DNA of 64,000 nucleotides from Minisyncoccota bacterium (GCA_018062765.1 JAGORR010000001.1:217249-281248), one strand, 5' to 3'; shown: positions 28,579-61,521, counted from the first letter of the stretch. The notes: generated by a model from the sequence alone, not told the origin. Program-made: numbers and translations.

Positions 28579-28580
28579 CT

Positions 28581-38949: not shown

Positions 38950-41900
38950 ATGACTCATATTACTTTCGCTTCGCGATCGGCTATCGCCCGATTCGCAAGC
39001 GCGCTCACGGTGTTCGCGCTCGTCGCGACACCGTTCATGACTCTTATTCCTGCATCGGCGCATGCGACCGCGCCGACACCAGCAAGCATTTCGATTGATA
39101 CTGTCGAAGATGATAATGGCTCATATACTTCGCCTTTTGATTTCTCATGCCCTGTAGATGGTAATGAAGGAGAAATAACCATCTACGGTAGCGGAGCGAG
39201 CGCAAGCAACTCCCCGGGGCAGATTGAAGACTATGCCGTTGCAATAGATTGGGGAGATGGGAGCGCAACAACCACAGATCTTGGCACGTTCACTCCTCCT
39301 TCAGGGACGTCTACGTTCACGTACGAATTCACAGCTTCCCATTCGTATTCCTCCTACGGACCAAAAACTGTCACTGCATACCTTTACCATGGAAGCCTAA
39401 ATGGAAACGATGGTGATGCTGTGGCGACAATCACTTTATCTCCTTGCAGCACCGATCCGGGTGTGACCACCGACGCTGCAGACAACATCAGCCACACGGA
39501 CGCTACTATGCACGGTACCAACGGGCCTGTAGCAGCGACAAACTCCTCGTACTGGGTCTCCCTTGCGCCGATTGATACCGGCTCGTCCTCCATTCCGCCA
39601 GGCGTCTACTCAACCCCGACTCAGGGAGCGGTAGCTGCTAATGGCGCCCTTGCCGGGACGCCCCTTTCTTCTGTCGCGACTTCCGGCATCCCAGGAAACA
39701 TCCCAGGCGGTATACAACCAGATACCACGTACTACTTCGTTGCGTGGATCGAAGTCGGCGGAGACTGGTATCCGGGCGAAGTCCTCTCTGTCACGACCCT
39801 CCCTGATCCTGAAGTACCGCCGGCCTGCGGAATCATGGATAACACCACGTTCGACGGATTCTCTCTCGGCAGCGTAAACGGCCAGGGCGGATGGGGTATA
39901 ACCGGTCCCTACGACCACGCTATCGTCGATAACACCTACGGCTTCCCAACTTTCGGTTGTAAGACGCTTCGTATCTCGAACGCCGTAACCGCTGGTTCGT
40001 TCGGTGACCAAATCTTCTCCTACTCAGTCGCCAACGAGGCAGGTGAGACTGTTGCTGAGAATAACGGCATGTCAGGGGGTACTCGCCAGGAGCGCTTCGA
40101 GGCAGAGTTCGATATCGCCTCCGCTGATGCAGACGTTTACCAGCCGGGCCTCGCTGTCACTGTCTCTCCCGACCGGGGTGATGGCGCTCGCATGAGCTAT
40201 CTTCGCTTCGAGGATTCCCCGGACGGTATCGATGTCTATTTCTACGACGTGCAGAGCTCGACTGATCCTGCGAACTTCGTCCAGACCCAGATCGCAAATG
40301 ATCTTCCGCGCACCTCGCCGCACACGGTGAAGCTCGTCATGGATTTCGTTGACGGCCCGGTAAGTCCGGCAGCGCTCCCTGCGAACGATGTCGTCGAAGT
40401 CTTCATCGACGGCGTCTCCGAGCATATCGGGACAAGCTGGGAAAACTATTACCGCTACGATAATGAGTCGAACCCTGGCCTTATCGACACGAGCCGCACC
40501 GTCGACTCGCTCCTCTTCCGTGTCGCTGGCACGGCTGCTCCGGAAACGGATGAGGAGGGCTTCCTCTTCGACAATGTCTCCATAGAGACCGGCCCTACAC
40601 CAGGCCCTGTCGTAGAGACCTCGACCGTGACCCTCTGTAAGTACGCAGACACGTACCCCGAGGAGACTCCACTCCCAGGATGGACGCTCACTCTTACCGG
40701 CGACACCGTACAGGAAAGTTTCGCCGTCCCTGTTGCAGACCCTGTAGGTGTTAACTCAAATCCTCTCGTAGCCGGAGTTTCCTACGTGGCAACGGCGATG
40801 GGTACTTGGCTCAATGACCGGCCAGATGATGCGCCTGAAGGAAACGATGTCGACGCTGAGTACTCGACGATCGACGAGTGGGTAACCCAGATGGACGGCT
40901 ACGACGGATTCGGTACCAATATCCTTGAGCTCGAGATCAATGAGACCGATGGCGAGTGGGGTACATACAACAGCAGCCATACGTACGCACAGGCCTTCAC
41001 CGTTGCTGCTGACGGCCCTGCGAACTTCCGGATCTTCGATGGCGACGGTGCGCATGTTCAGCAGCCAAGCTGGTTTGCCGACAACAAAGACAGCACGCTC
41101 GAAGTAGAGATCTCCGAAGGATATGCCGGCGTAACTGGAGAGAACGGCTGCGTAACGTTCGAAGATGTGCCATTCGGTAGCTACGAAGTAGGCGAGGTCA
41201 TGCAGGACGGCTGGGAGAACGAATCCGGACTTGGCGAGGTAACGGTGGATGAGGAGGAAATGGTCTTCGATGTCGTCAATCATAACGACGACTTCGGCAA
41301 TGATTCCTGCATGCTCGTAAGCGACACAACGACCCTCGAGGGTGGTACTGCTTCCGACCTCGTGCCGGAGCCGCATCATGAATCATGGACCGCCGTAGTA
41401 GACATGCTCGCGATGTGGATCTGGGGAGATGAGGAAGTCACTGATCCGACTGGTGAGGAGACTCAGGTCTTCACGAAGACGTTCTGGCTTGAGTCCGTAC
41501 CAGCGTCTGACGCGACCCTGGTCATCGGAGCCGATAACTCGTACGAAGTCGAACTCAATGGCACTCCAGTGGGTAACGATGCCAACGAGGACAACTACAC
41601 TAACGCTGAAAAGGACACGATTACGATTCCTATGGCGGACTTCGAGCTCGGTGCGAACACGCTCGTCTTCACGGTGAAGAACATCGCGTTTGGCGGCGGC
41701 ACGCAGGAGACGAATCCGGCCGGACTCATCTACAAGCTCACTATCCCAGGAACGGAGTGTCAGCAGACGCCTCCTGACCAGGCGGAGCTACAGGTCCACA
41801 TCTACAAGTACATCCAGGATGAGAACGATGCTATAGCGCTCGCAACCGAGGGAAGCTTCCCAATGAGCGCGACCTGGGACGCTGCCAACATCGGCGCGGG

Positions 41901-43257
41901 CTCCGGCAACTACGCGCTTAACGCGGGGAACAGCTATCACGCTGCAACGAGCCCGATGTCACAGCAGGCCGACTACAGCACCTACGAAGTCACGGATGGA
42001 AATCCTGTCATGCCTGCGGACAGTAATAGCTGTCCGGCGGATAAGTACCGACTCGTAGGCTACAAGACCGGAGATACGCTCATCGAAGCTGAGAACGACG
42101 CAATAGACGACGACTTCCCGGTCTTCGATAGTCTCGACGCTGATAAGTATGTAATCGTAGTCAACGAAGATTGTGATGACCTTGATATCCCACCTACCGA
42201 GCAGGTGAAGGTTCACATCTACAAGTACCTCGAGGATGAAAACGATGTAGCGACGCAGATTCCTGACAATGCGGAGATAGCGCCGTTTGCGATGACGGCG
42301 ACATGGACCGCAGATAACCTAAATAGCGGGACCGAGTCTTCCGGTGAGTATGTCCTCGGTAACAATCACGGCGGAACATCGCTTACGTACGCTGCGGATA
42401 CATCACCGATGGATGTCGGCGCTGATTACACGACTTCGGAGATTACCGGCGAGAACGGTGTCCTTCCGGTTGGTGGTGAGTGCGTTGAGGGTGCGTATCG
42501 CCTCGTGGGCTACAAGTCGGGCACGACCCTTGAAGAGGCAGAAGGCGGCGTCGTAACAGCAGCCGCACCAATCTTCACCGACCTCCAAACTGACCAGCAC
42601 GTTATCGTCGTCAACGAGGACTGCGATGACGTATTCGACGACAGTACTCCATCCGAAGAGCAGTTCACTATCACCTCGACGGTTGAAGGAGATGGAACGG
42701 TGACCCCGTTAGGCGCAATCGTCGTTAATGAGGGTGACAATCAGATGTTCACTTTTACTGACGGTGGCCAGTCGCTCGTCGAAGTTCTGATAGACGGCGT
42801 CGATATCGGAAGTCCTGCTGATTACACCTTCTCCAGTGTTAACGCGAACCATACGGTGCACGCACGATTCGCAACGAATGGAGGTGGCGGTGGTGGAGGA
42901 GGCGGAAACAATAACGGTGGTCAGGTTCTCGGTGCATCCACCGACGACATGTGCATCCCGCTCCTCCATACGTATATGCGCATGGGTATAGTGAACGACG
43001 CACAAGAGGTTATGGACCTTAAGGGCTTCCTTAACGAGGAAATGGGACTGACGCTTCCGATTGACTCGAACTTCGACGCAGCGACGGATGCTGCGGTGCG
43101 TGCATTCCAGACGAAGTACAAGACCGAAGTGCTTGATCCGTGGACACCGTTTGGCTTCAATGATCAGCCGACCGGCTACGTGTTCAAGCTGACCCAGTGG
43201 AAGGTAAACTCAATCCACTGTGCTCCAACGATTTATCCGTTCCCAGCGCTCCCATAA
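38950..43257 (+). CDS. giant (1435 aa) secreted cell-surface protein with tandem ~130-aa domain repeats, poly-Gly linker and C-terminal peptidoglycan-binding domain
   Basis: Signal peptide. Internal duplicated module (VHIYKY[IL][QE]DENDA...YRLVGYK[TS]G.TL.EAE...HVIVVNEDCDD, twice). GGGGGGGGGNNNGG linker. C-terminal PG_binding_1-like domain (AVRAFQTKY). Confidence 0.8.
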   Translation: MTHITFASRSAIARFASALTVFALVATPFMTLIPASAHATAPTPASISIDTVEDDNGSYTSPFDFSCPVDGNEGEITIYGSGASASNSPGQIEDYAVAIDWGDGSATTTDLGTFTPPSGTSTFTYEFTASHSYSSYGPKTVTAYLYHGSLNGNDGDAVATITLSPCSTDPGVTTDAADNISHTDATMHGTNGPVAATNSSYWVSLAPIDTGSSSIPPGVYSTPTQGAVAANGALAGTPLSSVATSGIPGNIPGGIQPDTTYYFVAWIEVGGDWYPGEVLSVTTLPDPEVPPACGIMDNTTFDGFSLGSVNGQGGWGITGPYDHAIVDNTYGFPTFGCKTLRISNAVTAGSFGDQIFSYSVANEAGETVAENNGMSGGTRQERFEAEFDIASADADVYQPGLAVTVSPDRGDGARMSYLRFEDSPDGIDVYFYDVQSSTDPANFVQTQIANDLPRTSPHTVKLVMDFVDGPVSPAALPANDVVEVFIDGVSEHIGTSWENYYRYDNESNPGLIDTSRTVDSLLFRVAGTAAPETDEEGFLFDNVSIETGPTPGPVVETSTVTLCKYADTYPEETPLPGWTLTLTGDTVQESFAVPVADPVGVNSNPLVAGVSYVATAMGTWLNDRPDDAPEGNDVDAEYSTIDEWVTQMDGYDGFGTNILELEINETDGEWGTYNSSHTYAQAFTVAADGPANFRIFDGDGAHVQQPSWFADNKDSTLEVEISEGYAGVTGENGCVTFEDVPFGSYEVGEVMQDGWENESGLGEVTVDEEEMVFDVVNHNDDFGNDSCMLVSDTTTLEGGTASDLVPEPHHESWTAVVDMLAMWIWGDEEVTDPTGEETQVFTKTFWLESVPASDATLVIGADNSYEVELNGTPVGNDANEDNYTNAEKDTITIPMADFELGANTLVFTVKNIAFGGGTQETNPAGLIYKLTIPGTECQQTPPDQAELQVHIYKYIQDENDAIALATEGSFPMSATWDAANIGAGSGNYALNAGNSYHAATSPMSQQADYSTYEVTDGNPVMPADSNSCPADKYRLVGYKTGDTLIEAENDAIDDDFPVFDSLDADKYVIVVNEDCDDLDIPPTEQVKVHIYKYLEDENDVATQIPDNAEIAPFAMTATWTADNLNSGTESSGEYVLGNNHGGTSLTYAADTSPMDVGADYTTSEITGENGVLPVGGECVEGAYRLVGYKSGTTLEEAEGGVVTAAAPIFTDLQTDQHVIVVNEDCDDVFDDSTPSEEQFTITSTVEGDGTVTPLGAIVVNEGDNQMFTFTDGGQSLVEVLIDGVDIGSPADYTFSSVNANHTVHARFATNGGGGGGGGGNNNGGQVLGASTDDMCIPLLHTYMRMGIVNDAQEVMDLKGFLNEEMGLTLPIDSNFDAATDAAVRAFQTKYKTEVLDPWTPFGFNDQPTGYVFKLTQWKVNSIHCAPTIYPFPALP

Positions 43258-43332: not shown

Positions 43333-44382
43333 ATGGCGAAGAAGGTCTTAAAACGAGTAGCGCCGCCGCGTGTCAGGAAGCGGCGGAAGCACGGTGTGAC
43401 GCTGTGGCTTTATGACCACTTCGTCCCGCACGCTGGGAACGGACATGAGCCCCACTACTTCCGCACGGGTTCCCTTATCGCGCTCGCACTCGGGGTCCTT
43501 ATGCTCCAGGGCCTTTATCTGGGAGCGACTAAGTTCGTATTCCTCCAGACGAATTTCCTCGCATCCGTCCTTCCTGGCGTCCTCGTCTCCTTAGCAAATG
43601 AGGACCGTGCCGAGAATGGGGTAGGAGCGCTTGAGGAGGACCCTGAGCTTTCTGCAGCAGCGCAGGTGAAGGCGAATGATATGGCAGCACGCGGGTACTT
43701 CTCCCACGCAACCCCTGAGGGGCAGCCGCCCTGGTACTGGTTCCGGCTTGCCGGATACGAGTATGCGCACGCGGGAGAGAACCTTGCGGTGAATTTCACC
43801 GATTCGATAGATGTGCAGGAAGCGTGGATGGAGTCCCCGACCCATCGTGCGAACATAGTGAAGCCTGTGTATACGAAGGTCGGGATAGGTGTCGCCGAAG
43901 GCACTTTTGAGGGGAAGCGGGCGACGTTTGTCGTGCAATTTTTTGCGACGCCACCGGCGGCGCCTATACCCGCGCCAGCCGAAAGTCGGCTTGCGGTCAC
44001 GGTCGCGGAGCCTGTTCCTGAAACGGAGCCTGTTGTCGCATCCGCGCCACCTGCTGCGACTGAAGTCCTGGGAACGGAGGCAGCTACGCCTGCGCCGACT
44101 ACGCGTCAGACGACTAGCTTCTGGCAGAAGTTTATGACCGAGATTACGAGCCCGACTGCGCTCCTTGTCTCAGCACTTACCGGATTCCTCTCGCTCACCA
44201 TCGTCGCCTTGCTTGCCATTATGCTCGTGCACTTCCGTATCCCACACCCGCGCGTCGTTCTGGGGAGTGCGGCGCTCACCGTCCTCTTCCTCGTAGCGCT
44301 CTACATGAACGCCTCGGCTATCATCCCGGTCACGCTGCCTGAGGACGCAGGGGTTGCTAACGCGATATCCGCGACTAGATAG
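43333..44382 (+). CDS. membrane-anchored CAP/SCP/PR-1-like domain protein
   Basis: GYFSH..P.G, GENLA, WMESPTHRANI, KVGIGV CAP signatures. N-terminal and C-terminal TM helices. Confidence 0.75.
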   Translation: MAKKVLKRVAPPRVRKRRKHGVTLWLYDHFVPHAGNGHEPHYFRTGSLIALALGVLMLQGLYLGATKFVFLQTNFLASVLPGVLVSLANEDRAENGVGALEEDPELSAAAQVKANDMAARGYFSHATPEGQPPWYWFRLAGYEYAHAGENLAVNFTDSIDVQEAWMESPTHRANIVKPVYTKVGIGVAEGTFEGKRATFVVQFFATPPAAPIPAPAESRLAVTVAEPVPETEPVVASAPPAATEVLGTEAATPAPTTRQTTSFWQKFMTEITSPTALLVSALTGFLSLTIVALLAIMLVHFRIPHPRVVLGSAALTVLFLVALYMNASAIIPVTLPEDAGVANAISATR

Positions 44383-49392: not shown

Positions 49393-50016
49393 ATGGCAAT
49401 AGTTGCGCGCATACTCGAGAACACGACTGCCGTCGCCGTAGCGGCGCAGCCGCCCTTAAAGACACCGGAGCCGACGGCCGTATTCGCGCTATTTGCTCCT
49501 GAGGAGCAGTCAGGTGCGCGTTTTTTTGACGACACTGCGCTTGGGGTACGCTCCTTCACTCTTCCTGCGTTGGACCTCCGACTTATCTTCGAGCCTACGC
49601 GCGTCAGGCTCGAGGCAACCGCGCCTAAGCCGGTCGATGTGCTTCCGTTGGGTACACGCCTAGCAAATGTCGTCGCGGCCATATATCCCAATGTTCCGTT
49701 TCTTCGCTATGGATTCAACTACGACCGCACGTTCCAATACGACGCCGTCATCCCACAGCGCCACATCATGGAGGCGTTCATGGACGCGGAGGCCGTGAAT
49801 GCGATGACGCATTTTGGCTGGCAGTGCACCTTGCAGAAAGAGAAGGGTAAGCGGAAGGAAACCTACTTCTTCAAGGTCGTCTCGCCGCTTGAGATACGAA
49901 TCCTCGCGAATATCGAGTTCGATCGGGTACTTCCAGAAGCAGGCAAGTGCCAGACAGAGTTCGCGCAGTGCGCGGATGACGCGATGCATATCGTCGAACG
50001 TCTCCGTTTTTCCTAA
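49393..50016 (+). CDS. hypothetical protein
   Basis: 207 aa, translationally coupled to its neighbours. Confidence 0.4.
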   Translation: MAIVARILENTTAVAVAAQPPLKTPEPTAVFALFAPEEQSGARFFDDTALGVRSFTLPALDLRLIFEPTRVRLEATAPKPVDVLPLGTRLANVVAAIYPNVPFLRYGFNYDRTFQYDAVIPQRHIMEAFMDAEAVNAMTHFGWQCTLQKEKGKRKETYFFKVVSPLEIRILANIEFDRVLPEAGKCQTEFAQCADDAMHIVERLRFS

Positions 50017-50017
50017 C

Positions 50018-51484
50018 ATGACCGTAACCCGCAACGGCGTACGACTTACGAGGCGGAGCAAGCGCTGGTGGCGGCTTGCGTTCATACTTGCTGCCGAGGG
50101 TGTGCTTTCCGCGTTCGTCTACATGTCCTTGGCGGCGCATATCCTCTGGCCAGAAGACTCTAAAGCTGCCACCGGCGTCTCCGCGATGCTCTCCTATGAG
50201 GGAAGGCTTATGGACGCGTCGGGGAACCCGCTTGGCGGCACCGGCACCCCATACTGCTTCCGCTACTCCATATACGACGCAGCCTCGGGTGGCACGAAGC
50301 TCTGGCCCGCAGGCACCCCTAATACATCGCTCGCCACTTCTACCGACGGCGTGTTCTCGTCCCTCATTGGCCAGGCGGATGCGCTTACCTATAACTTTTT
50401 TGATAGCGATACTGTCTACCTCAACGTCGATGTGTACACGGTGGCAGCGTCTGGAGGCACCTGCTCGGGCGGTTCGTGGGAGAGTCTCACGCCCCGTCAG
50501 CAGATTGCCTCAACCGGCTACGCGCAGACCGCAAAAAACACCTACGGCGGCTCGATACAGGTGGGTGACGGCGCCGGCGTAACGCTCAATTATCTTGCGC
50601 TCGACGTGAAGAATACGGACGACTACATCGGTCAGTCCTGCACCACAAGCGGCACCGTGTGGTACAACTCCGCGATATCAAAGACACTCGTCTGCGAGAA
50701 CTCGGTCATACAGGCGATTTCGAATGCGTCTGCGACGACGACGATTGCGGGCATCACAACGAACACTGCCGCTGCAGCATCTACCGGTACCATCGTTTTC
50801 AGTAACGCAAACGGCGTTACCTTCGGCATCAACGGACAGACCATCACTGCTTCTGTTGCCGCCGCTGGCGGCGGCATCACCTACAGCGGATATGCACCTG
50901 ATCATTTGGGTAAGGAGCTCGTCGCGGGTCAACAGGGACAAGGGACCTTCTTTGTTCAGCCGATGTGGAACGCTCCCTCGTTCCAGTTCGATAGACTCGT
51001 TTTGCCCATCAACTTCTCCAACACCTCAAACCTTTCGGGAAGCGGCACCGTCTCGTTCTGGATTGGCATTTACAGCAGAAACGTATCGTCGCTTTCGCTC
51101 GTGATGAGCACTTCCATATCAACGAACGTCACGATGTCTGGGACGGTCGGTAGCTATTCGCTCTACGCTGGACCGAGAAACCTTGCTATTCCATGGACGA
51201 GCACCGTATCCGGAAGCGACTACTGGATTGGCATCGGCTCTCGTACGACCACGGGCGGCGCCGCGATGTCGATCTCACAATTCCTGGCTTCACAACCGAA
51301 CTCAAACTATTCGGGAAATTTCGGTTCAGCGAACAATGCCACCAAAGGAATGATTATGGGACAAGGTTTCTATAGTGCTACGACATCAGCAGTCCCGGCT
51401 TCGATCGCCTTCACGCAAATCAATGGAACGGGTTCGCTCAATAGGCGCCCCCCAGTGTATTACTTCATGAGCGGTACGATATGA
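50018..51484 (+). CDS. membrane-anchored Ser/Thr/Gly-rich surface protein, hypothetical
   Basis: Internal ATG one nt after the upstream stop. N-terminal TM. Long S/T/G/N-rich beta-rich region. Confidence 0.45.
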   Translation: MTVTRNGVRLTRRSKRWWRLAFILAAEGVLSAFVYMSLAAHILWPEDSKAATGVSAMLSYEGRLMDASGNPLGGTGTPYCFRYSIYDAASGGTKLWPAGTPNTSLATSTDGVFSSLIGQADALTYNFFDSDTVYLNVDVYTVAASGGTCSGGSWESLTPRQQIASTGYAQTAKNTYGGSIQVGDGAGVTLNYLALDVKNTDDYIGQSCTTSGTVWYNSAISKTLVCENSVIQAISNASATTTIAGITTNTAAAASTGTIVFSNANGVTFGINGQTITASVAAAGGGITYSGYAPDHLGKELVAGQQGQGTFFVQPMWNAPSFQFDRLVLPINFSNTSNLSGSGTVSFWIGIYSRNVSSLSLVMSTSISTNVTMSGTVGSYSLYAGPRNLAIPWTSTVSGSDYWIGIGSRTTTGGAAMSISQFLASQPNSNYSGNFGSANNATKGMIMGQGFYSATTSAVPASIAFTQINGTGSLNRRPPVYYFMSGTI

Positions 51485-52218: not shown

Positions 52219-53184
52219 ATGAAATACTTCATTTTCGTCCTTAGTTTGCTCCTCATCGGCGGAGCCGGCTGGTATTTCGGGAGCGTTTCGAACGTTGCCG
52301 AGGGTATCCGAGCTTCAGTAGTGCAGGATGATTCAAGTCTTACGTCTGGCAACTACCCACTCATCAATGAGACGGTTACCTCCGGCCTCGGGAAGCACTA
52401 CATCATCAATATGCAGCCGCTCAGGGAAAGGTTGGTTGCGATAGCGGAGGAGTATAGCTACAAGAAGCATGTCTATTTCGCCTACCTGAATAACGACTCC
52501 TGGATTGGTATCAACGAGCGCGAGTACTTCACTGCCGCATCGACCATCAAGGTGCCGCTTGCGATGAGTATTATGCACGCGGTCGAGGAGCGAAAAATAT
52601 CTCTTGATGATACGTACACCGTACAGAGCGAGGATTTGGATGATAACTTCGGTGAGCTCTACAAGACTGCTGAGGGTAAGACATTCACGATACGGGAGCT
52701 GATGAAGATTACGCTCGAGGAGTCCGATAACACAGCCTCGTCCGCTCTCTTCCATGCACTTCAGGAAATTGGCATCCAAGATCCATTTTCAAATGTGTAC
52801 ACATTCATGGGATGGGACAACTATCCCGGTGTTGGAGAGTCGCCAGAATACTTCGATGTCAATCTTAAGATTCTCTCGAACATGTTTCTCGCGCTCTACA
52901 ACGCAAAGTATGTCGATGTCGATTCATCACAGGAGATTCTCGACTATCTCGATAACGAGAATTTCAATGAGCAGATAGTGGCCGGCGTCCCGGACGGGAT
53001 CCCTGTCGCGCACAAAAGCGGCGTACAGACAGAATCAGACTCGTATTCAGATTGCGGAATCGTATATGCTCCGAACCGTCACTACCTGCTCTGCATAGGC
53101 TCCGAGGGCGCACCAAAACCAGTGGCAGATGCATTCATGAAGGAAATTTCTAAAACGGTGTACGATTACATCATCAATAACTAG
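52219..53184 (+). CDS. class A beta-lactamase-family serine hydrolase, membrane-anchored
   Basis: S-x-x-K (ASTIKV), SDN (ESDNTAS), KSG (HKSGV) motifs; N-terminal TM. Confidence 0.75.
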   Translation: MKYFIFVLSLLLIGGAGWYFGSVSNVAEGIRASVVQDDSSLTSGNYPLINETVTSGLGKHYIINMQPLRERLVAIAEEYSYKKHVYFAYLNNDSWIGINEREYFTAASTIKVPLAMSIMHAVEERKISLDDTYTVQSEDLDDNFGELYKTAEGKTFTIRELMKITLEESDNTASSALFHALQEIGIQDPFSNVYTFMGWDNYPGVGESPEYFDVNLKILSNMFLALYNAKYVDVDSSQEILDYLDNENFNEQIVAGVPDGIPVAHKSGVQTESDSYSDCGIVYAPNRHYLLCIGSEGAPKPVADAFMKEISKTVYDYIINN

Positions 53185-54702: not shown

Positions 54703-56070
54703 ATGAAGCGGCTCCTTCCGCTCATCCTCCTCGGGCTTATCCCAACCGCGGCTTTTGCATGGAATGCTACTTCGACGTCCTTTTACGTACGTCAGAATAT
54801 CCAATCGATTTCAGGGGGTAACGCGACCTCCTCCTACAGCACCTCGACATCGTTCATGCTGCTTTCTGCGGGCGGACAGACGGCCGTCGGCACCTCGTCA
54901 CCTGGAGCGACCTATAGCCTTGGGAGCGGGATACTGCAGAACTTGAATGAGAGCGTGCGTCCGGAGTACACGCTTGCTCACTACCATTGGCGGCAAGATG
55001 ATGGTAACGAAGCAGCCGCGACTTCCGCGACCGGAAGCGAGGATACGCCTAACTCGACCATTACCAAGCTCGCGACCGCGCGTCTGCGCATCGCGGTCTC
55101 TAACGAGGGCGGGACCGAGGCAGCGTACGCTGCGCAGACACTCCGTCTTGAATACGGAGTCAAGGCGACGACCTGTGCGGATATCGTGAGCTGGACGGAC
55201 GTAGGGGAGAATGGCGGCCACTGGGATATGTCGGACTCTGCGAATCTCACGAACGGCGCGAACACCACGAATATCGCAACCGCAACTGGCGGTGTCTCAG
55301 ACCCAAATCACACATTCATCTCTTCTAACGCAGGCGTGCGCGATACCGGAAGCTCCTTGGGTGCGCTCTCTATATCAAGCGATTCATTTGTTGAAGCGGA
55401 ATTTTCAATCGAGGCGACGTCGTCTGCGACGGATGATGGTGATTATTGCTTCCGGGTCACGAACGCAGGGTCGACCACCGACTTCGTGTATGAAGAATAT
55501 CCGGAAGCGACGATATCAGTCGCAATGTCTTTCTCCACTACGCATACGAATTTCCCTTCAATCACTCCTGGGATACCCACTTTTGCCACAACCACGCTTT
55601 CGGTCTCAACCAGCAACTCCTCGGGCTGGAACGTTATCCTTTCAGGTGACGATCAGGGGCCGTCGGACACGGTAATGGACCTTACGACTGACGCCGCGGT
55701 GGGTATCGCGGACCAACTCGAGTGGATACCGGGCGCGGCGACCACCTCCGCCGGAAACGCGGTCCGCATAAACTCCTTCGATAACTCGGGCGACGTCCTT
55801 GCGTTTCGCGTTATGACAGCGTCAGGAACGACTGCATTTCGCGCTTCTTCCTGGTGGGGAAGCACGGACTCGTATGTGGATTCCGCGACAACACTTTGGG
55901 CTGGCATCGCTTCCTCGACCGCAACCAACAAGAAAATCGGTAACACTAACGTTTCGTCAGGCGGCAGTCCCGTCCTCTCCTCTGTGGTGTATTACCTTGA
56001 TGTCCCGGCAAACCAGCAGCAGGGCAGCTACTCGGGAGACATAACCTACACCGCAAGTGCGAACCCATAA
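54703..56070 (+). CDS. secreted WxL-like domain surface protein (paralog A)
   Basis: Signal peptide. C-terminal ~190 aa paralogous to the next gene. SGWNVILSGDDQG and terminal YSGDITYTASANP resemble WxL motifs (G.W.L.... / GdYtstltWtLtdaP). Confidence 0.5.
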   Translation: MKRLLPLILLGLIPTAAFAWNATSTSFYVRQNIQSISGGNATSSYSTSTSFMLLSAGGQTAVGTSSPGATYSLGSGILQNLNESVRPEYTLAHYHWRQDDGNEAAATSATGSEDTPNSTITKLATARLRIAVSNEGGTEAAYAAQTLRLEYGVKATTCADIVSWTDVGENGGHWDMSDSANLTNGANTTNIATATGGVSDPNHTFISSNAGVRDTGSSLGALSISSDSFVEAEFSIEATSSATDDGDYCFRVTNAGSTTDFVYEEYPEATISVAMSFSTTHTNFPSITPGIPTFATTTLSVSTSNSSGWNVILSGDDQGPSDTVMDLTTDAAVGIADQLEWIPGAATTSAGNAVRINSFDNSGDVLAFRVMTASGTTAFRASSWWGSTDSYVDSATTLWAGIASSTATNKKIGNTNVSSGGSPVLSSVVYYLDVPANQQQGSYSGDITYTASANP

Positions 56071-56123
56071 TGGGGATAACCAGTGTCTAGACATGGCGAG
56101 GGTAAGGTAATATGGATTTCATG

Positions 56124-56801
56124 AAGATTTCATCTGACTCCTTGGAGACTATTAAGACCGGGTCTGCAGCGCTTCTTATTGCTACCTTCGTCTTCTCCTC
56201 TTTCTACGCGTACCGAGCGCACGGCGAGGCCGTTTCGCTTTCGGTCTCCGTCGCTTCCGCACTCACCTTTACTACGACTACAGACCAGTTCGGTACCCTT
56301 ACCCCAGGAACCTATAAAATCGCAACCACGACGCTTTCGGTAACCACGAACAATACCGCAGGGTGGAATATCACTCTGTACGGAGATGATCAGGGATCTT
56401 CAGACACGGTCCTCGACCTCACAACTGACGCTGCGGTTGGTATCACGGACCAGACTGAGTGGGTACCTGGAGGCGCGACAACTTCCGGAGGTAATGCTGT
56501 CGTTCGTGGTTCACTCGATAGTTCCGGTGACGTGCTTGCGTTCCGTGTGATGAGTGCATCCTCCTCAAACGGTACACCATTCCTTTCAACCGGGTGGTGG
56601 GGAACTTCAGACGCCGACGGCACGGCTAAGTTCGCCGGCATCGCTTCCTCCACTGTCGGTCGCCAGATTGGTAACGCGGGTACAGGCTCCTATAGCGCCA
56701 CGGCGCACCTTAACACCGTCCAGTACTACCTGGACGTCCCAGCCTCCCAGCAGACCGGTTCTTACGACGGCGGGCTTACCTACACAGCAACGGCCAACTA
56801 G
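56124..56801 (+). CDS. secreted WxL-like domain surface protein (paralog B)
   Basis: AGWNITLYGDDQG ... YDGGLTYTATAN. Shares 60-70% identity over about 190 aa with the C-terminus of the upstream gene. Confidence 0.5.
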   Translation, partial: KISSDSLETIKTGSAALLIATFVFSSFYAYRAHGEAVSLSVSVASALTFTTTTDQFGTLTPGTYKIATTTLSVTTNNTAGWNITLYGDDQGSSDTVLDLTTDAAVGITDQTEWVPGGATTSGGNAVVRGSLDSSGDVLAFRVMSASSSNGTPFLSTGWWGTSDADGTAKFAGIASSTVGRQIGNAGTGSYSATAHLNTVQYYLDVPASQQTGSYDGGLTYTATAN

Positions 56802-56818: not shown

Positions 56819-57730
56819 ATGAATACAGCGAGGATCCTTGGCACTCTCGCTCTCTCGATACTATTCGCCGCTAGCCCCGTCGGAGCGTATGCCGCCTCGA
56901 CCGGACTCACCATACAGCCGATAAAGGCGTCTTACACGCTTGCTCCTGGGGCAAGCGTGTCGGGCGCTATATCGCTTACTAACGCGTCGACAAACGCGGC
57001 CGTACAAGTCGAGCTTAAGGTAGAAGACTTCATTCCGCTTGCCGGGAGCGACCAGTTGCAATTCGTCTCGCGCGCACCAGGCGTCACGACCGTGCGCGAT
57101 TGGGTAACCCTTAATGGGGGCGAGCATGTTATTCGGCTTGAGAAGGGGGAGAGTATCGCGGTTCCGTTTACCATCACGGCGCCCGCGGACGCGGAGCCGG
57201 GAAGCCACTTTGGTGCTGCCTTCTTTAAGGCGATAGATATTGCTGATGTTGATAAGCAGCTCAAGGTCGGCACACAGGTCGGCATGCTCATGTTCGTCAC
57301 GGTTCCTGGAAATTACGCGCAGAAGGGAGAAATTACGTCGTTTACTGCGCCTCGGTTCGTGCAGCGTACCCCGTTCGATTTCAAGATTGGCTTTACGAAC
57401 ACCGGTACCGTGCACTTTGAGCCCAAGGGATCAGTCACGGTACGTAACATTTTTGGTTCGGTAGTCGCTGAGGTGCCGGTCGAAGGACAGGTGGTACTCC
57501 CGACTGGCTCTAAGGAACTCACTGCGCGCTTTGCAACCGACAGCTTCCTTTTAGGTAGGTACGCTGCCATCGTGCATCTTGCTGACGGTGAAGGGAACCC
57601 GCTGACGTCTGAGGAGCGCACCTTCTACGTATTTCCGGTGTGGTACACGCTCGGCTTCATCCTTTTCGCACTCTTCCTATTCTTCGGGCTTCGCTTCCTC
57701 AAGCGGCGCGTGCGCATCAGCCTAAAATAA
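56819..57730 (+). CDS. DUF916/DUF3324-like cell-surface protein with a C-terminal TM anchor (WxL-locus partner)
   Basis: Signal peptide, two Ig-like beta domains, C-terminal TM plus RRVR stop-transfer. Architecture matches the membrane partner of WxL operons. Confidence 0.45.
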   Translation: MNTARILGTLALSILFAASPVGAYAASTGLTIQPIKASYTLAPGASVSGAISLTNASTNAAVQVELKVEDFIPLAGSDQLQFVSRAPGVTTVRDWVTLNGGEHVIRLEKGESIAVPFTITAPADAEPGSHFGAAFFKAIDIADVDKQLKVGTQVGMLMFVTVPGNYAQKGEITSFTAPRFVQRTPFDFKIGFTNTGTVHFEPKGSVTVRNIFGSVVAEVPVEGQVVLPTGSKELTARFATDSFLLGRYAAIVHLADGEGNPLTSEERTFYVFPVWYTLGFILFALFLFFGLRFLKRRVRISLK

Positions 57731-57733
57731 TGA

Positions 57734-58744
57734 ATGACGCGCTACCTTGCCACCCTTCTCGGGTTTCTTGCGCTCCTTACGCCATTCTCAGCGTACGCTG
57801 ACCTTGTCGGCTCTTCCGAAGTGAACTTGTCAGTGACCGTTGCTGCGCTCGCCGCATGTCAGGACGGTATCGACAACGATAGCGACCTCTTGATCGACTA
57901 CCCCGACGATACGGGGTGTTCAAGCGCAACTGATACGACCGAGACAGTCGAATCTTCCGGAGGTGGTGGAGGCGGCGGAGGCGGGGGTGGAGGCGGCGGG
58001 GGAGGTGGATCGGGGAGTACACAAGCGGTGTTTCGTGGCCGCGCGTACCCGGGCAGCAAGGTGACCGTGCTTAAGGACGCCCGCATCATCGTCTCCACCG
58101 TCGCCTCTCCTGACGGTACCTTCGATGTCACCGCTAAGAAAATCACGCCAGGAACGTATACCTTCAGCGTCTACGGTACTGACAAGCGCGGTGTGCAGTC
58201 TGCAACGCATGCATTTACGGTTGCGATGACGGCGAATGTGACCAATATCGTGAGCGGTATCTTTTTGCCGCCCACCATGACCATCGACAAAAAGGAGGTG
58301 CGCTGGGGAGAGGTGCTCGTTACTATCGGGCAGACGAACCCGTCGTCTGAGGTGACTATCTTCGTCAATTCCGAACGCGAAGTGGTGAAGAAGGTGTTCG
58401 CTTCTGCTGACGGCTCATGGCTTCTAAATTTCGATACGACCGAGATTGAACGCGGCAACCACAGCACACAGTCGCGTGCCGCAAAGCAGGGGGAGATAAG
58501 CCCCTTATCAAAGCCGCTTTCATTTAAGGTGGGCGACCGCACGGTGTATGCGGAAAGCGAGAGCGAGTCACAGGCGACAAGTAAGGGAGACGTAAACGGG
58601 GACAGTCGCGTGAACCTTGTCGACTTCTCGGTTGTAGCGTATTGGTTTAAGCGCGCGAACCCCCCGGCAACCGCTGACCTTAACGGGGACGGGCAGGTGA
58701 CGCTGGTGGACTTTTCGATACTTGCCTATAACTGGAACGGTTGA
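57734..58744 (+). CDS. secreted protein with poly-Gly linker, Ig-like domains and a C-terminal type-I dockerin
   Basis: GDVNGDSRVNLVDFSVVAYWF ... ADLNGDGQVTLVDFSILAYNW are the two Ca-binding dockerin repeats. G17 linker. Confidence 0.75.
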   Translation: MTRYLATLLGFLALLTPFSAYADLVGSSEVNLSVTVAALAACQDGIDNDSDLLIDYPDDTGCSSATDTTETVESSGGGGGGGGGGGGGGGGGSGSTQAVFRGRAYPGSKVTVLKDARIIVSTVASPDGTFDVTAKKITPGTYTFSVYGTDKRGVQSATHAFTVAMTANVTNIVSGIFLPPTMTIDKKEVRWGEVLVTIGQTNPSSEVTIFVNSEREVVKKVFASADGSWLLNFDTTEIERGNHSTQSRAAKQGEISPLSKPLSFKVGDRTVYAESESESQATSKGDVNGDSRVNLVDFSVVAYWFKRANPPATADLNGDGQVTLVDFSILAYNWNG

Positions 58745-58745
58745 T

Positions 58746-59729
58746 ATGGACGATTCACGTGAAAATCGCGAGCTGCAGCGTTACGGGTCCCTCCGCTCCG
58801 CTCCGCCGTATAGCCTATACGTCTACGCGAAGCTTAGTCCCGCGCCTGGCATCTCATCGATTTTCACGCGAATCGTAGTGGCTGCGATGTGCGCGCTACC
58901 CCTTCTGTCGATACCAGCATTGGTGGAAGCTGCGGAGATACATTTCAATCCTCAGGACAGCTCGATTGGTACCGAGGGGGAATTCCTGGTCGGAGTTAAT
59001 CTCACGTCCGAAGAGCGGGTTAACGCCATTTCACTCGTGCTTCCTATTCCGACAGGGCTCCGGCTCATGGGCGTGTCTGACGGCAACTCCATTGTCACTC
59101 TTTTCGTAGAGTCGCCTGCGTTTGATGAGGACGAGCGAAGCCTCTCGTTCTCAGGAGTCATTCCTAATGGATTTTCTGGAGAGGAGGGGCGGCTCGTGAC
59201 ACTCACGTTTGCGCCTGAGAAGCGCGTAGGGTCCGCCACGTTCGTCCTCGACCCGGGAAGCGAGGCGTACGCCAAGGAGGGTGAGCCAGTCGCTTTGTAC
59301 GGACGTGCGCTCACCCTTCCGTTTGCCGCAGGGAAGCGCAACCTGCAGGACTTTCCGCCAGACCGCGATCCTCCGGAGGAGTTCGATCCCGTTCTCATAC
59401 CTGATCCGTCGCCGCAAGGAAGCGGTCTCCTTATCGCATTCTCTACAGTAGACAAAGCCTCCGGCATCGAACGCTACGAGGTGAAGGAAAGTGTTTGGGG
59501 AAATTGGTTCCCGTCATACGGATGGCAAGAGACAACGAGTCCACATCGCTTAACGGATGCAACGCGCACGAGTTGGGTGTATGTGCGCGCGACTGATGAG
59601 GCGGGTAACAGTTATGTTGCGATGATTCCGCCGGAGCGCTCACCGTTTGTTGTATACATCCCAATCTTGCTTGGAATCATCGTGCTACTCTTTATCGTAT
59701 ATGCACGTTACGCGCGTAGGTCGCGCTAG
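58746..59729 (+). CDS. membrane-anchored cohesin-like domain protein
   Basis: GEFLVGVNLTSEERVNAISLVLPIP.GLRLMGV ... GRLVTLTFAPEKRVGSATFVLD cohesin-like beta-sandwich pattern. C-terminal TM. Confidence 0.5.
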   Translation: MDDSRENRELQRYGSLRSAPPYSLYVYAKLSPAPGISSIFTRIVVAAMCALPLLSIPALVEAAEIHFNPQDSSIGTEGEFLVGVNLTSEERVNAISLVLPIPTGLRLMGVSDGNSIVTLFVESPAFDEDERSLSFSGVIPNGFSGEEGRLVTLTFAPEKRVGSATFVLDPGSEAYAKEGEPVALYGRALTLPFAAGKRNLQDFPPDRDPPEEFDPVLIPDPSPQGSGLLIAFSTVDKASGIERYEVKESVWGNWFPSYGWQETTSPHRLTDATRTSWVYVRATDEAGNSYVAMIPPERSPFVVYIPILLGIIVLLFIVYARYARRSR

Positions 59730-61521
59730 CGCCGTTCTCATTCTTTTTTTCGCACTCACTGGGAGTGCTTCGGCAGCAACGCTGTCCGTGGGTTCTGTCT
59801 CTGGCACAGTAGGGCAGACGGTGTCGGTACCGGTCACTGTCTCTGCTGGGTCTGGTGAATCTCTGAACGCCGTTTCAGTAAACATATCGTTCCCGACCGA
59901 TAAGCTCTCTCTCACCTCGATATCAAAAGCTTCATCGATAATCAGTTTGTGGGCGCAAGAGCCTGTCTATTCAAACGTTAACGGCACTGCGGCGCTTGAG
60001 GGCATTATCCCGAACCCTGGGTACTCAGGCTCCTCAGGGCGAGTCGCGCTTCTGACTTTTACGATAAAGGCAGCGGGAAGCGCGACCGTTTCTTTTTCAA
60101 GCGCTTCGGTGCTTGCAAATGACGGCCAAGGCACCAACATCCTACGCTCGAGCAATCCAGGAACGATAACCGGCTCTGCAGGAGCCGCGCCAGCTCCCAC
60201 GCCTGCACCGGCTGCGCCTTCCTCTACGGAGCCGGCTGAAGAATCCGAGGACGAGTCAGTCGAATCAGATGAGGGGCTACCAAAATCCGCGTTTACTATC
60301 ACAAGCAAGACTCATCCTGAACAGCTTTCGTGGTATCGCGCAGACACCGGTACCTTCTCGTGGCCAGTGCCGCCAGGCGCCTCTGCTACGCGCCTCTTGT
60401 TGAGTCAGTCTGCGTCAGCAATTCCATCGGTGGCGTACCCAAACGCGATAGGGGAAAAGACGATTGACGAGCTTCCTGAGGGCACGAGCTACCTTGCGGT
60501 GCAGCATCAGGTGGGTGGCGTCTGGGGTGAGGTGGGGCGCTATCGCGTGAATGTGGACACGACGCCACCTCGCTCATTCCGTATAACGTTCCCGCACGGC
60601 TCGGAAGGATTCAACCCGCAACCGATTATCCTTTTCAATACGCTCGATGGGGAGTCGGGCATCGATCACTACGACGTGCGCGTTGGCGCGGGCGACCTCC
60701 TGCGGAAGACGGCGGCGGCTGACTCAAACCCATACATGTTGCCGATGCTTGAGCCTGGCACCCATACCGTGCGTGTTACCGCGTACGACCGCGCTGGTAA
60801 TGAGACTTCGGATGAGGCGTCAGTAGAGGTCGAAGGAATCGAAGCACCTCGCTTCACCCACTACGAGGAGGTGGTCACGACTGCTGATAATCTCAAGCTC
60901 CGCGGCATCACCTATGAGAATGCGGATGTAAATGTTCATATCTACGACGAGGATGGCGTCCTGGTGACCGAGGAATTCACCCGCTCCAACACACTCGGAG
61001 ACTTCGCCGTTCTTATCTCGAAGCACCTATCTGCGGGCGAATACACCGTAACTGCTCGCGTGACCGATGATCGTGGCGCACGCAGTCTCGAATCCAGTCC
61101 GCTACCGTTTACCATAGAGGGCCGGTTCTTTACGATACTTCAGGAACTCCTCTACGATTACTTGGCGCCTCTCATCGTCTTCGTCACCGCGGTTGGCGGA
61201 GCGCTTTACGTACTCTTCATTGCCGCTGAGCGCCTATTGCGCAGTATGAAGGGCCTCAACGCTCTTGGACTTACTGTGCGTCGCGAGCCGAGCCCGGAGG
61301 ACACAACTCACAAAGCGTTCATGCTCCTCAAGCAGGACCTCGCATCCTACCGTCGCATTCTTGCCGCCGCTAAAAAGCATCGAGAGCTTACCGGCGAGGA
61401 GGAAGCATTCCTCGAGCGATTCAAGGAAGACCTTACGGACGCGGAGTCCGTGATAACCGAGACCATCAAGAAGCGACGTGCGCCGCGACGTGTGAAGAAA
61501 CTCGAGGTTACTGAGGAGTAG
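59701..61521 (+). CDS. membrane-anchored cohesin-domain protein with additional Ig-like domains
   Basis: ATLSVGSVSGTVGQTVSVPVTVSAGSGESLNAVSVNISFPTDKLSLTSI...GRVALLTFTIKAAGSATVSFSSASVLANDGQG is a close match to the cohesin consensus. C-terminal TM plus charged tail. Confidence 0.7.
   Translation: MHVTRVGRASAVLILFFALTGSASAATLSVGSVSGTVGQTVSVPVTVSAGSGESLNAVSVNISFPTDKLSLTSISKASSIISLWAQEPVYSNVNGTAALEGIIPNPGYSGSSGRVALLTFTIKAAGSATVSFSSASVLANDGQGTNILRSSNPGTITGSAGAAPAPTPAPAAPSSTEPAEESEDESVESDEGLPKSAFTITSKTHPEQLSWYRADTGTFSWPVPPGASATRLLLSQSASAIPSVAYPNAIGEKTIDELPEGTSYLAVQHQVGGVWGEVGRYRVNVDTTPPRSFRITFPHGSEGFNPQPIILFNTLDGESGIDHYDVRVGAGDLLRKTAAADSNPYMLPMLEPGTHTVRVTAYDRAGNETSDEASVEVEGIEAPRFTHYEEVVTTADNLKLRGITYENADVNVHIYDEDGVLVTEEFTRSNTLGDFAVLISKHLSAGEYTVTARVTDDRGARSLESSPLPFTIEGRFFTILQELLYDYLAPLIVFVTAVGGALYVLFIAAERLLRSMKGLNALGLTVRREPSPEDTTHKAFMLLKQDLASYRRILAAAKKHRELTGEEEAFLERFKEDLTDAESVITETIKKRRAPRRVKKLEVTEE

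Follow-up and report, generated by a model that had tools for sequence, protein, structure and literature searches.

The window, a 64-kb stretch of a metagenome-assembled Candidatus Pacebacteria genome of ~638 kb (Patescibacteria), carries three adjacent genes: g1 codes for a secreted protein with a C-terminal dockerin, g2 and g3 for two membrane-anchored proteins tipped by cohesins (Table 1). Spacing is close throughout: 3 nt before g1, 1 nt between g1 and g2 and then a 29-nt overlap between g2 and g3, and the surface-protein genes upstream are tightly packed with the trio. The open reading frames of the original prediction were all recovered in place. It had also proposed a single surface locus running from 47.8 to 61.5 kb, of which a core of ~54.7-61.5 kb is kept across relatives, whereas the part beginning at 47.8 kb is found only in close relatives such as L072.

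Table 1. Genes and features of the surface-protein locus (window coordinates).
Feature	Coordinates	Strand	Description and evidence
i455	54703..56070	+	Large secreted protein; extra N-terminal domain and a C-terminal pilin-like domain in common with j229
j229	56112..56801	+	Small secreted pilin-like protein; strand-like N-terminus and C-terminal domain only
k303	56819..57730	+	WxLIP-like (chaperone-like) protein; C-terminal transmembrane helix, residues 269-295
g1	57734..58744	+	Secreted adaptor; Big_6 and Dockerin_1 (Pfam), family alignment, conservation by region
g1 N-terminal beta-strand-like segment EVNLSVTVAAL	57818..57850	+	Mature N-terminus; candidate donor strand
g1 poly-glycine linker, 17 Gly	57959..58009	+	Gly run kept in homologues
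g1 dockerin module, two Ca2+-loop plus helix repeats	58583..58741	+	PF00404 match
g2	58746..59729	+	Short membrane-anchored cohesin stalk; paralogy to g3
g2 cohesin-fold domain	58929..59336	+	AlphaFold2 model and Foldseek
g3	59701..61521	+	Long membrane-anchored cohesin stalk; Pfam Cohesin and Big_13, AlphaFold2 model, family alignment
g3 cohesin module	59779..60168	+	PF00963 match; ends in nearly invariant SVLANDGxGT motif

The g1 product (336 aa) opens with a signal peptide and a strand-like N-terminus, continues through a Cys-rich acidic repeat and a poly-Gly stretch to two Ig-like domains, and ends in the dockerin. The duplicated dockerin segments that had been picked out from the sequence alone, GDVNGDSRVNLVDFSVVAYWF / ADLNGDGQVTLVDFSILAYNW, indeed form the C-terminus, and Pfam reports Dockerin_1 (PF00404) at 36.1 bits (cut-off 22.9, E 7.7e-9) along with Big_6 at 37.7 bits. 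A profile of the g1 dockerin family matches the solved type I dockerins 2y3n_B (E 9.7e-5), 5nrm_B and 1daq_A, and the tandem Ca2+-loop-helix arrangement of that type is present: loop positions 1, 3, 5, 9 and 12 are occupied by D286, N288, D290, N294 and D297 in the first repeat and by D315, N317, D319, T323 and D326 in the second. Position 323, a T here, is D or N in 82% of homologues; the other Ca-ligand positions are 84-100% conserved (55 homologues). Within g1, conservation is highest in the dockerin (0.8) and falls to 0.22-0.38 in the variable N-terminal region, where lineages carry acidic disulfide repeats, FN3-like domains or an 'SSTNF' domain. Five or more consecutive glycines stand at the same place in 54 of the 55 homologues.

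For g3, translation from the ATG at 59701 gives 606 aa, 100% identical to P0001 from a metagenome-assembled Ca. Pacebacteria genome; the most likely start of g2 is the ATG at 58746 (327 aa), by analogy with P0121, which is 95% identical. Along the g3 protein, a signal peptide precedes the cohesin; a disordered linker then leads to three Ig/FN3-like domains, and the transmembrane helix (487-510) and a conserved helical cytoplasmic tail complete the chain. Its cohesin passes the Pfam model comfortably (PF00963, 38.3 bits, cut-off 24.1, E 1.8e-9), Big_13 is also reported and the AlphaFold2 model has a pLDDT of 84. The g2 protein is shorter: its signal sequence is followed by a cohesin-fold domain and one Ig-like domain, and a transmembrane helix (residues 297-324) lies at the C-terminus. 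The Pfam scan returned no match for g2 itself, but 7 of 64 g2-family members match PF00963 (E <= 0.01). Paralogy is evident from BLASTP (30% identity over 142 aa, E 1e-9) and from profile-profile comparison of the two families (probability 100%, E 7e-47). The AlphaFold2 model of the g2 domain (pLDDT 91.3) has a cohesin-type beta-sandwich fold: cohesins alone stand at the top of two PDB fold searches, and with Foldseek the top 50 matches are cohesins only, the best being 2xdh (E 1.6e-7, TM 0.78). These data show that g2 and g3 are paralogues and type I membrane proteins, in each of which a single cohesin-fold module tops an Ig-like stalk. The predicted folds, stalks and anchors thus stand, but the g3 helix is not C-terminal, being followed by the cytoplasmic tail of ~96 aa.

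The two cohesins differ in a conserved motif. The motif block at the C-terminal end of the cohesin is the most conserved part of g3 (0.82), and its NDGxG motif is kept in 25 of 26 g3 relatives as against 23 of 64 g2 relatives. In the family comparison the motif was not found in the g2 of the window, and this g2 may therefore not bind the dockerin.

A scan of one genome per species returned 384 g3 relatives. Synteny was assessed on the 63 loci that are not duplicates and have at least 2.5 kb of sequence 5′ of g3. Across Patescibacteria the order g1-g2-g3 is almost invariant (g2 in 61/63 loci, g1 in 60/63), and the trio usually stands downstream of one or two genes for Pam-type pilins and of a gene for a membrane-anchored WxLIP-like protein. 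In 24 of 37 loci the gene directly 5′ of g1 is a k303 relative, most often preceded by two pilin-cluster ORFs. In at least five loci (L003, L030, L041, L048 and L053) the trio has just a small ~135-aa gene upstream, and pilin or WxLIP genes were not found nearby; the trio may therefore work alone. Fusions of g2 with g3 occur in at least five independent clusters (P0148 and others), and the membrane topology read from the P0148 sequence would work. One protein (L077:5206-5964) unites this type of cohesin with a dockerin. Considering all ORFs of the window and of 83 loci, dockerins are confined to g1-family proteins and this L077 protein; within the window, g1 is the sole dockerin-bearing ORF.

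Judging from these sequences, the g1 dockerin would bind the g3 cohesin in a Ca2+-dependent manner, and possibly the g2 cohesin too, so that g1 would be tethered to a membrane stalk of g2 and g3, perhaps a heterodimer. We consider it improbable that the partners do not bind each other at all, with the dockerin-like module serving as a Ca2+-binding, stabilising element or a glycan binder and the cohesin-like domains binding cell wall, S-layer or host surface. The g3 family profile does match PDB cohesins only weakly (E 0.29-0.39) and the conserved NDGxGT motif has no assigned role, both of which would suit such independence, as would the fact that many non-cellulosomal dockerins have, to our knowledge, no known partner. 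It sits poorly, however, with the strict adjacency of the dockerin gene and the two cohesin genes in ~95% of loci, with the cohesin-plus-dockerin protein of L077, and with the conservation pattern, which peaks at the dockerin in g1 and at the C-terminal cohesin block in g3.

The classical setting of such pairs is the cellulosome, and the original prediction had already remarked that no glycoside hydrolases lie nearby. None was found among the scanned window neighbours of g1-g3. These neighbours include a beta-lactamase-family protein, a weak methyltransferase-like match and a FAD oxidoreductase. A cellulosome scaffoldin, with several cohesins and usually a CBM and a wall anchor, does not describe g2 or g3, which have one cohesin each and a transmembrane anchor; nor does g1 resemble a cellulosomal dockerin enzyme, its other domains being Ig-like only. 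Pfam reported no CBM or SLH domain in g1, g2 or g3, and no sortase signal was seen in the cassette proteins. Compared with cellulosome type I pairs (C. thermocellum CipA Coh2-Xyn10B dockerin, PDB 1OHZ; C. cellulolyticum 2VN5), the dockerin protein here lacks an enzyme, there is one cohesin per protein, anchoring is by transmembrane helix, the host is a Patescibacterium and identity to solved cohesins is very low (9-21%).

A cellulosome-like enzyme display, in which g2 and g3 would be scaffoldins for hydrolases encoded elsewhere and g1 one of several ligands, therefore has to draw on the rest of the genome, the window being just 64 kb of it, and we regard it as very improbable. An essential dockerin-domain protein known from another Patescibacterium could be counted in its favour: SEML1_0315 of the saccharibacterium Southlakia epibionticum, which is important for epibiotic growth (Wang et al. 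2023, PMC10633639). Like g1, this is a dockerin-annotated envelope protein of a non-cellulolytic Patescibacterium, but it is a stand-alone Ig-repeat protein of 927 aa with three Ig-like domains, and it is flanked by a tRNA gene and a hydrolase gene rather than by cohesin genes. Single cohesins without a carbohydrate-binding module, the lack of a glycoside hydrolase among the scanned genes and the restriction of dockerins to the g1 family and one cohesin-dockerin protein all speak against enzyme display.

Non-cellulosomal cohesins and dockerins are reportedly the subject of a survey by Peer et al. from 2009. Solved examples are the Archaeoglobus fulgidus cohesin 2XDH and the Clostridium perfringens toxin-complex cohesins 2VO8, 2JH2 and 2W1N. 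The genes presented here differ from these in forming a fixed three-gene cassette with two membrane-anchored paralogues, kept across a superphylum lineage and linked to pilin-type genes.

The genes upstream of g1 had been called WxL-like, a description that partly holds. Their architecture fits (large protein, small protein, WxLIP-like protein with a transmembrane helix), but none of the 14 i455/j229-family members matches the Pfam WxL domain at E <= 0.1, and i455 and j229, which have a C-terminal domain in common, probably belong with the pilins of CPR Pam pili. Against the NCBIfam model NF058581 (CPR_Pam_pilin_C), j229 gives E 2.7e-5 at 24.3 bits, below the cut-off of 55, and i455 gives no match; the model is matched by 6 of the 14 j229-family members and by 22 of 48 ORFs 5′ of g1 in related loci, with which i455 clusters. 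ORFs occupying the corresponding position in L001 and L014 reach 86.9, 75.4 and 63.8 bits against the same cut-off, and both j229 and i455 fall in one single-linkage cluster with these genes. The k303 match to Pfam WxLIP_PGBD (PF06030) is weak (E 0.084, 13.4 bits, cut-off 27.3); 19 of the 30 members of its family match, the best at 3e-7, and the family profile aligns with EfmWxLIP1 (PDB 9i25_C/9i1y_A, E 0.0027) over chain residues 23-253 of 277. On these similarities, a CPR Pam-type pilus or WxL-cluster module is probably the better description of the upstream genes.

Conservation of the trio beside pilus-type genes suggests a plug-and-socket anchor for a fibre rather than a machine for degrading cellulose. 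Our reading, held with slightly better than even confidence, is that the locus is the 3′ part of a CPR-type (Pam/WxL-cluster-like) surface-fibre operon, that the assembly it encodes is a non-cellulosomal cohesin-dockerin system on the cell surface, and that this assembly anchors the fibre. The cohesin-dockerin pair would act as the joint by which a thin surface fibre is held at its base to the cell membrane, with the poly-Gly stretch of g1 as a flexible hinge and the conserved tail of g3 linking the structure to something intracellular; its likely role would be attachment to a host or surface. This fibre-anchor reading is weakened because the pilin-like genes of the window are sub-threshold for the Pam pilin model (24.3 vs 55 bits).

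A donor-strand role is proposed for the g1 N-terminus. The strand motif [VIL]x[VIL][TS][AGV]x[VIL] occurs within residues 13-65 of 21 of the 55 g1 homologues as against 1.3% of other 53-aa windows, a ~30-fold enrichment, and the strand is similar to 'VAVTATV', a pilin segment that lies ahead of the C-terminal domain in the same loci. Long g1 variants also have an N-terminal domain in common with a Pam-pilin-C protein (E 1.2e-9). By this resemblance, the mature N-terminal strand of g1 could be donated to the last pilin (i455 or j229), the role already proposed for PamR in the Pam pilus. We tentatively extend this to Paceibacteria and related CPR classes, as a possibility toward which we lean less than away: a Pam-type donor-strand-exchange fibre would end in g1, the strand capping the last pilin, the dockerin plugging into a g2/g3 cohesin heterodimer and the g3 tail coupling it to the cell interior.

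Alternatively, g1 docked on g2/g3 could be an adhesin in its own right, with the variable Cys-rich or FN3-like N-terminus as the host-binding tip and the pilin and WxLIP genes forming a separate system, co-located because both serve the envelope. The variability of the g1 N-terminal region beside a conserved dockerin, its change of architecture between lineages and the loci in which the trio lacks pilin and WxLIP genes nearby would all be expected of such a protein. We nevertheless find it rather unlikely, since most loci keep a tight pilin-pilin-WxLIP-g1-g2-g3 order, the mature g1 N-terminus looks like the linker strand of the pilins and a Pam-type pilin has the N-terminal domain of the long g1 variants.

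The fibre-anchor reading finds its closest counterpart in the Pam pilus of CPR bacteria, which combines membrane-anchored chaperones with an N-terminal strand anchor, PamR (Troman et al. 2026, bioRxiv 10.64898/2026.03.03.709456). [quoted passage not shown] The anchor here would however be split, g1 and g2/g3 being joined by cohesin and dockerin, and the window pilins are sub-threshold.

Firmicutes WxL clusters, which combine a small WxL, a large WxL and a WxLIP whose hairpin inserts into WxL (Hassan et al. 2023, PMC10599100), offer a second comparison. There too, a large and a small protein with a common C-terminal domain are followed by a two-domain protein with a transmembrane helix, and the k303 family matches both Pfam WxLIP_PGBD and the solved EfmWxLIP1. 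In contrast, the i455/j229 family has neither a Pfam WxL match nor Trp-x-Leu motifs, and cohesin-dockerin genes are not described in the Firmicutes clusters (PMC10599100).

In the literature searched, this cohesin-dockerin variant is undescribed and we found no report of a cohesin-dockerin pair anchoring a pilus. If true, the pilus-base reading would connect three systems so far treated apart, namely the cohesin-dockerin pairs of cellulosomes, CPR Pam pili and Firmicute WxL clusters, and would add the anchoring of surface appendages to the known roles of cohesin-dockerin in enzyme display and toxin complexes. Such a divergent and compact pair might also serve as an orthogonal protein connector, and the hypothesis can be tested with recombinant domains, without cultivation. 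Patescibacteria account for a large part of bacterial diversity, and most of them are believed to be attached to other cells, yet almost nothing is known of how their envelope structures are assembled. Present in hundreds of species beside a filament system recognised only in 2026, the cassette offers a hypothesis for how a fibre may be fixed on a cell that has no outer membrane.

Every gene from 54.7 to 61.5 kb is on the + strand, in a tightly packed array (coordinates are tabulated below): two pilin-like genes (i455 and j229), a WxLIP-like gene (k303), the gene for a secreted dockerin protein (g1) and those for two membrane-anchored paralogues with cohesin-bearing stalks (g2 and g3). The gap between k303 and g1 is 3 nt and that between g1 and g2 is 1 nt, while g2 and g3 overlap by 29 nt. 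The tabulated ATG is the likely start of g2, since it yields a product of 327 aa, the length of the 95%-identical homologue P0121. In a metagenome-assembled Candidatus Pacebacteria genome, the hypothetical protein P0001, encoded on a contig of 637,994 bp, shares 100% identity with the g3 product. A horizontally acquired island was considered and rejected, as the GC content at 54-62 kb (0.56-0.57) falls inside the range of most of the window. A promoter scan (one promoter-like site against 6.4 expected) and a terminator scan (terminators at chance level) were uninformative.

Positions in the window of the cassette genes, their upstream neighbours and two segments within the cassette
Feature	Position	Strand	Remarks
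i455	54703-56070	+	pilin-like, large
j229	56112-56801	+	pilin-like, small
k303	56819-57730	+	WxLIP-like
g1	57734-58744	+	dockerin protein
g1 poly-Gly run	57959-58009		17 glycines
g2	ORF listed from 58722; probable start ATG 58746	+	start based on homologue P0121
g3	ATG 59701 to 61521	+	606-aa product
SVLANDGxGT motif	60100-60140		g3 residues 136-148

The original prediction that g1 ends in a dockerin was borne out, with a Pfam Dockerin_1 match of 36.1 bits (cut-off 22.9) in the canonical form of two loop-helix repeats. The Ca2+-ligand positions of repeat 1 (D286, N288, D290, N294, D297) and repeat 2 (D315, N317, D319, D326) are 84-100% conserved among 55 homologues, and the family profile finds the solved type I dockerins 2y3n_B (E 9.7e-5), 5nrm_B and 1daq_A. 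Both repeats carry LVDFS[VI]xAY and are nearly symmetrical, which would permit a dual binding mode or the bridging of two cohesins. Ahead of the dockerin, g1 begins with a signal peptide and a short segment resembling a beta-strand (EVNLSVTVAAL); then come a Cys-rich acidic repeat, which is variable, a run of glycines and two well-conserved Ig-like domains. The protein also matches the Ig-like Pfam family Big_6. Column conservation is highest in the dockerin (0.80-0.84, against 0.22-0.38 in the N-terminal region). A run of at least five glycines occupies the same position in 54 of the 55 homologues, although its flanks are poorly conserved; hinge, spacer and processing site are candidate roles.

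This dockerin is restricted in the DNA sampled. Within the window, g1 is the sole ORF with a double Ca-loop pattern, and the g1-family dockerin HMM, run against the ORFs of the window and of 83 related loci, returned g1-family proteins and one further ORF, L077:5206-5964 (a search for homologues of the isolated 63-aa dockerin, aimed at further dockerin proteins of this genome, gave 14 short fragments, nothing else, and was uninformative). The glycoside hydrolases said to be missing from the vicinity were indeed not found among the window genes scanned. On the 64 kb of genome covered, a cellulosome-like display of enzymes was rejected when cellulosome membership was tested, and we regard it as highly improbable.

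The cohesin modules predicted in the two following genes were likewise confirmed. Directly, g3 matches Pfam Cohesin (38.3 bits, cut-off 24.1) along with Big_13. Its neighbour g2 has no Pfam match itself, but its alignment to g3, the family profile and PF00963 matches within the family (7 of 64 members) agree in placing a cohesin there. Aligned to the N-terminus of g3, g2 shows 30% identity over 142 aa (E 1e-9), and the two family profiles align with a probability of 100% (E 7e-47) across the cohesin-like domain and the following Ig-like domain, DTTPP...SGIDHY...AGN. Searches of PDB sequences found no match with g2, and the g3 profile reached solved cohesins at no better than E ~0.3. Foldseek hits to a model of g3 over its full length (whole-model pLDDT 84) were mostly generic multi-Ig adhesins and did not inform on the cohesin domain; the g2 domain was therefore modelled alone. 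The best structural match is 2xdh, a non-cellulosomal cohesin. Within the window, g2 and g3 are the sole ORFs with the CPR-type cohesin.

In g2 the cohesin stands between the signal sequence and a single Ig-like domain, and the protein has a transmembrane helix at its C-terminal end (residues 297-324). In the longer g3, a disordered linker of ~35 residues connects the cohesin, which comes after a signal peptide, to three Ig/FN3-like domains; beyond them lie a transmembrane helix (residues 487-510) and a conserved cytoplasmic tail of ~96 aa, predicted to be helical. Conservation in g3 peaks (0.82) where the cohesin reaches its C-terminal end, in the block SVLANDGxGT. This motif is present in 25 of 26 g3 relatives, is degenerate in most g2 paralogues (retained in 23 of 64) and has gone from the window's g2; it is a candidate dockerin contact or Ca2+ site.

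Relatives of g3 are numerous. A word-indexed search returned over 150 full-length proteins, from Patescibacteria wherever the source was named, and an HMM search of 1.84 billion cluster representatives gave 6,113 proteins at E <= 1e-30, the best 150 of which (all E <= 1e-171) are mostly full-length (~570-600 aa), the remainder being giant repeat proteins and g2-g3 fusions. Scanning one genome per species, we found 384 stretches encoding a g3 relative, nearly all in genomes that were assembled from metagenomes and bear the labels of Patescibacteria lineages (Paceibacterota, Kaiser-, Taylor-, Nomura-, Campbell-, Jorgensen-, Wolfe-, Uhr-, Magasanik-, Falkow- and Komeilibacteria, among others); the records of a few bear a different label, such as 'uncultured Gammaproteobacteria'.

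Gene order is near-invariant. Window proteins were searched against the ORFs of 80 fetched loci, and among the 63 loci (duplicates excluded) whose DNA upstream of g3 spans 2.5 kb or more, g2 lies directly upstream of g3 in 61 and g1 precedes g2 in 60. The exceptions are L063 and L083, where g3 has neither g2 nor g1 upstream, and L077, where g2 is present and g1 absent. The dockerin ORF of L077 encodes a single 252-aa chain made of a signal anchor, a cohesin of the CPR type and a C-terminal dockerin; at this locus, which lacks the usual g1, pilin-like and WxLIP-like genes lie downstream. Fusions of g2 with g3 (~870-900 aa) occur among g3-profile matches in five or more clusters, independent at the 50% identity level (P0148, P0153, P0155, P0160, P0245). 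P0148 keeps g2 complete with its transmembrane helix (probability 100%, E 1.2e-59) and continues into the signal peptide of g3 and then the whole of g3, an arrangement that, read from this protein, would give a workable three-pass membrane topology, which argues that g2 and g3 act together.

We propose that the g3 cohesin, and perhaps that of g2, receives the g1 dockerin, an arrangement that would set g1 atop a g2/g3 membrane stalk; the poly-Gly run would serve as a hinge, and the g3 tail would contact something in the cytoplasm. That cohesin and dockerin modules sit side by side here without binding each other seems improbable to us.

The genes upstream of the trio had been called WxL-like, a description that suits their architecture and fails as family membership, i455 and j229 having no Pfam WxL match. 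These two proteins have a common C-terminal domain. Neither their profile nor a bona fide Pam pilin matched any PDB sequence; j229 matches the NCBIfam Pam pilin model NF058581 (CPR_Pam_pilin_C) weakly (E 2.7e-5, 24.3 bits, below the cut-off of 55), and an iterated HMM of its domain reached only 7 loci. The link to Pam pilins therefore comes from NCBIfam and from clustering the ORFs upstream of g1 across 37 loci, where the typical order is two pilin-cluster ORFs, a k303-like gene, g1, g2 and g3. NF058581 is matched by 22 of the 48 pilin-cluster ORFs (best 6e-46), with scores above the cut-off for the pair that directly precedes the k303-like gene in L001 (86.9 and 75.4 bits) and for one gene in L014 (63.8 bits). 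No NCBIfam model matched g1, g2, g3 or k303 as a Pam component. The k303 protein has a C-terminal transmembrane helix, 19 of 30 members of its family match Pfam WxLIP_PGBD, and the family profile matches the solved EfmWxLIP1 (9i25_C) with an alignment that spans residues 23-253 of the 277-residue chain (E 0.0027).

Pam pili are described as CPR-specific donor-strand-exchange filaments, found mainly in Saccharimonadia and Microgenomatia, whose PapD-like chaperones carry a C-terminal transmembrane helix, whose linker strand, a participant in donor-strand exchange, is placed just before the pilin C-terminal domain and whose proposed anchor, PamR, puts an N-terminal strand into the last pilin (2026 preprint, bioRxiv 10.64898/2026.03.03.709456). 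The mature N-terminus of most g1 homologues is an alternating beta-strand (e.g. ITVEITATVPGC, TVLSVTVVAL, VSVTATV), a strict form of this pattern occurring in 21 of 55 g1 N-termini against 1.3% of other 53-aa windows, and pilins of the same loci have a very similar QVAVTATVDQ directly before the C-terminal domain. In a second g1 architecture (430-455 aa; L003, L028, L030, L034, L041, L042, L048, L053, L070, L080) the short strand is replaced by an N-terminal 'SSTNF..PV..GG..STNF..GFxYFP' domain, with an added FN3-like domain; the SSTNF-type domain recurs at the N-terminus of a Pam-pilin-C protein, L014:5718-6746 (E 1.2e-9).

On balance we lean towards a cohesin-dockerin surface assembly that belongs to a fibre operon. 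More tentatively, the g1 strand would cap the last Pam-type pilin, which would make the cohesin-dockerin pair the joint at the foot of a thin surface fibre, a reading we hold to be possible and short of probable. A stand-alone adhesin complex with the variable g1 N-terminus as its tip has in its favour those loci where the trio lacks pilin or WxLIP genes nearby: in at least five with the second architecture (L003, L030, L041, L048, L053), only a small gene of ~135 aa lies upstream. We consider it unlikely.

Other envelope genes lie upstream, encoding an M23 peptidase with PG_binding_1 repeats (32148-33518), a 1435-aa protein (38950-43257; PG_binding_1 sub-threshold, 22.6 bits, cut-off 23) and a CAP-domain protein (43333-44382). 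A beta-lactamase2-family (serine hydrolase) gene at 52219-53184 has counterparts within a few kb of the cassette in at least 13 related loci, upstream in all but one, which hints at a wider conserved envelope neighbourhood. The NCBIfam model Bdello_MAT_N, which describes a mosaic adhesive trimer fibre protein, matches the 556-aa ORF at 49814-51484 weakly, at E 0.0017 and well short of the cut-off; the ORF could encode another fibre-like surface protein. Farther away, an Eco57I-type methylase gene and a T5orf172/ResIII helicase-like gene (27088-31094; GC 0.46-0.48 against ~0.56 elsewhere) may form an acquired restriction or defence island.

Cohesins and dockerins outside cellulosomes are already known. 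One of them, 2xdh, is the best structural match, and a number of g3 relatives carry the NCBI label 'cohesin domain-containing protein'; finding these domains is therefore nothing new in itself. A literature search found no paper joining dockerin and cohesin with Parcubacteria, and titles and abstracts on dockerins in Patescibacteria do not describe the cassette. The best-ranked literature for dockerin paired with Parcubacteria-lineage names did not contain the word 'dockerin', and that for dockerin, pilin and donor strand held no dockerin-pilus link. SEML1_0315, an essential dockerin protein of the saccharibacterium Southlakia, was rejected as an instance of the same cassette, being a stand-alone gene (927 aa).

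In Firmicutes, WxL clusters combine a small WxL, a large WxL and a WxLIP protein, a hairpin of which is predicted to insert into WxL (PMC10599100). The layout is the same as that of i455, j229 and k303, namely large, small and membrane-anchored two-domain protein. The Pam preprint (bioRxiv 10.64898/2026.03.03.709456) makes no mention of cohesin, dockerin, WxL or Paceibacteria, and neither it nor PMC10599100 links Pam to WxL. This common layout, together with the match of k303 relatives to EfmWxLIP1, suggests that the Pam and WxL systems may be akin.
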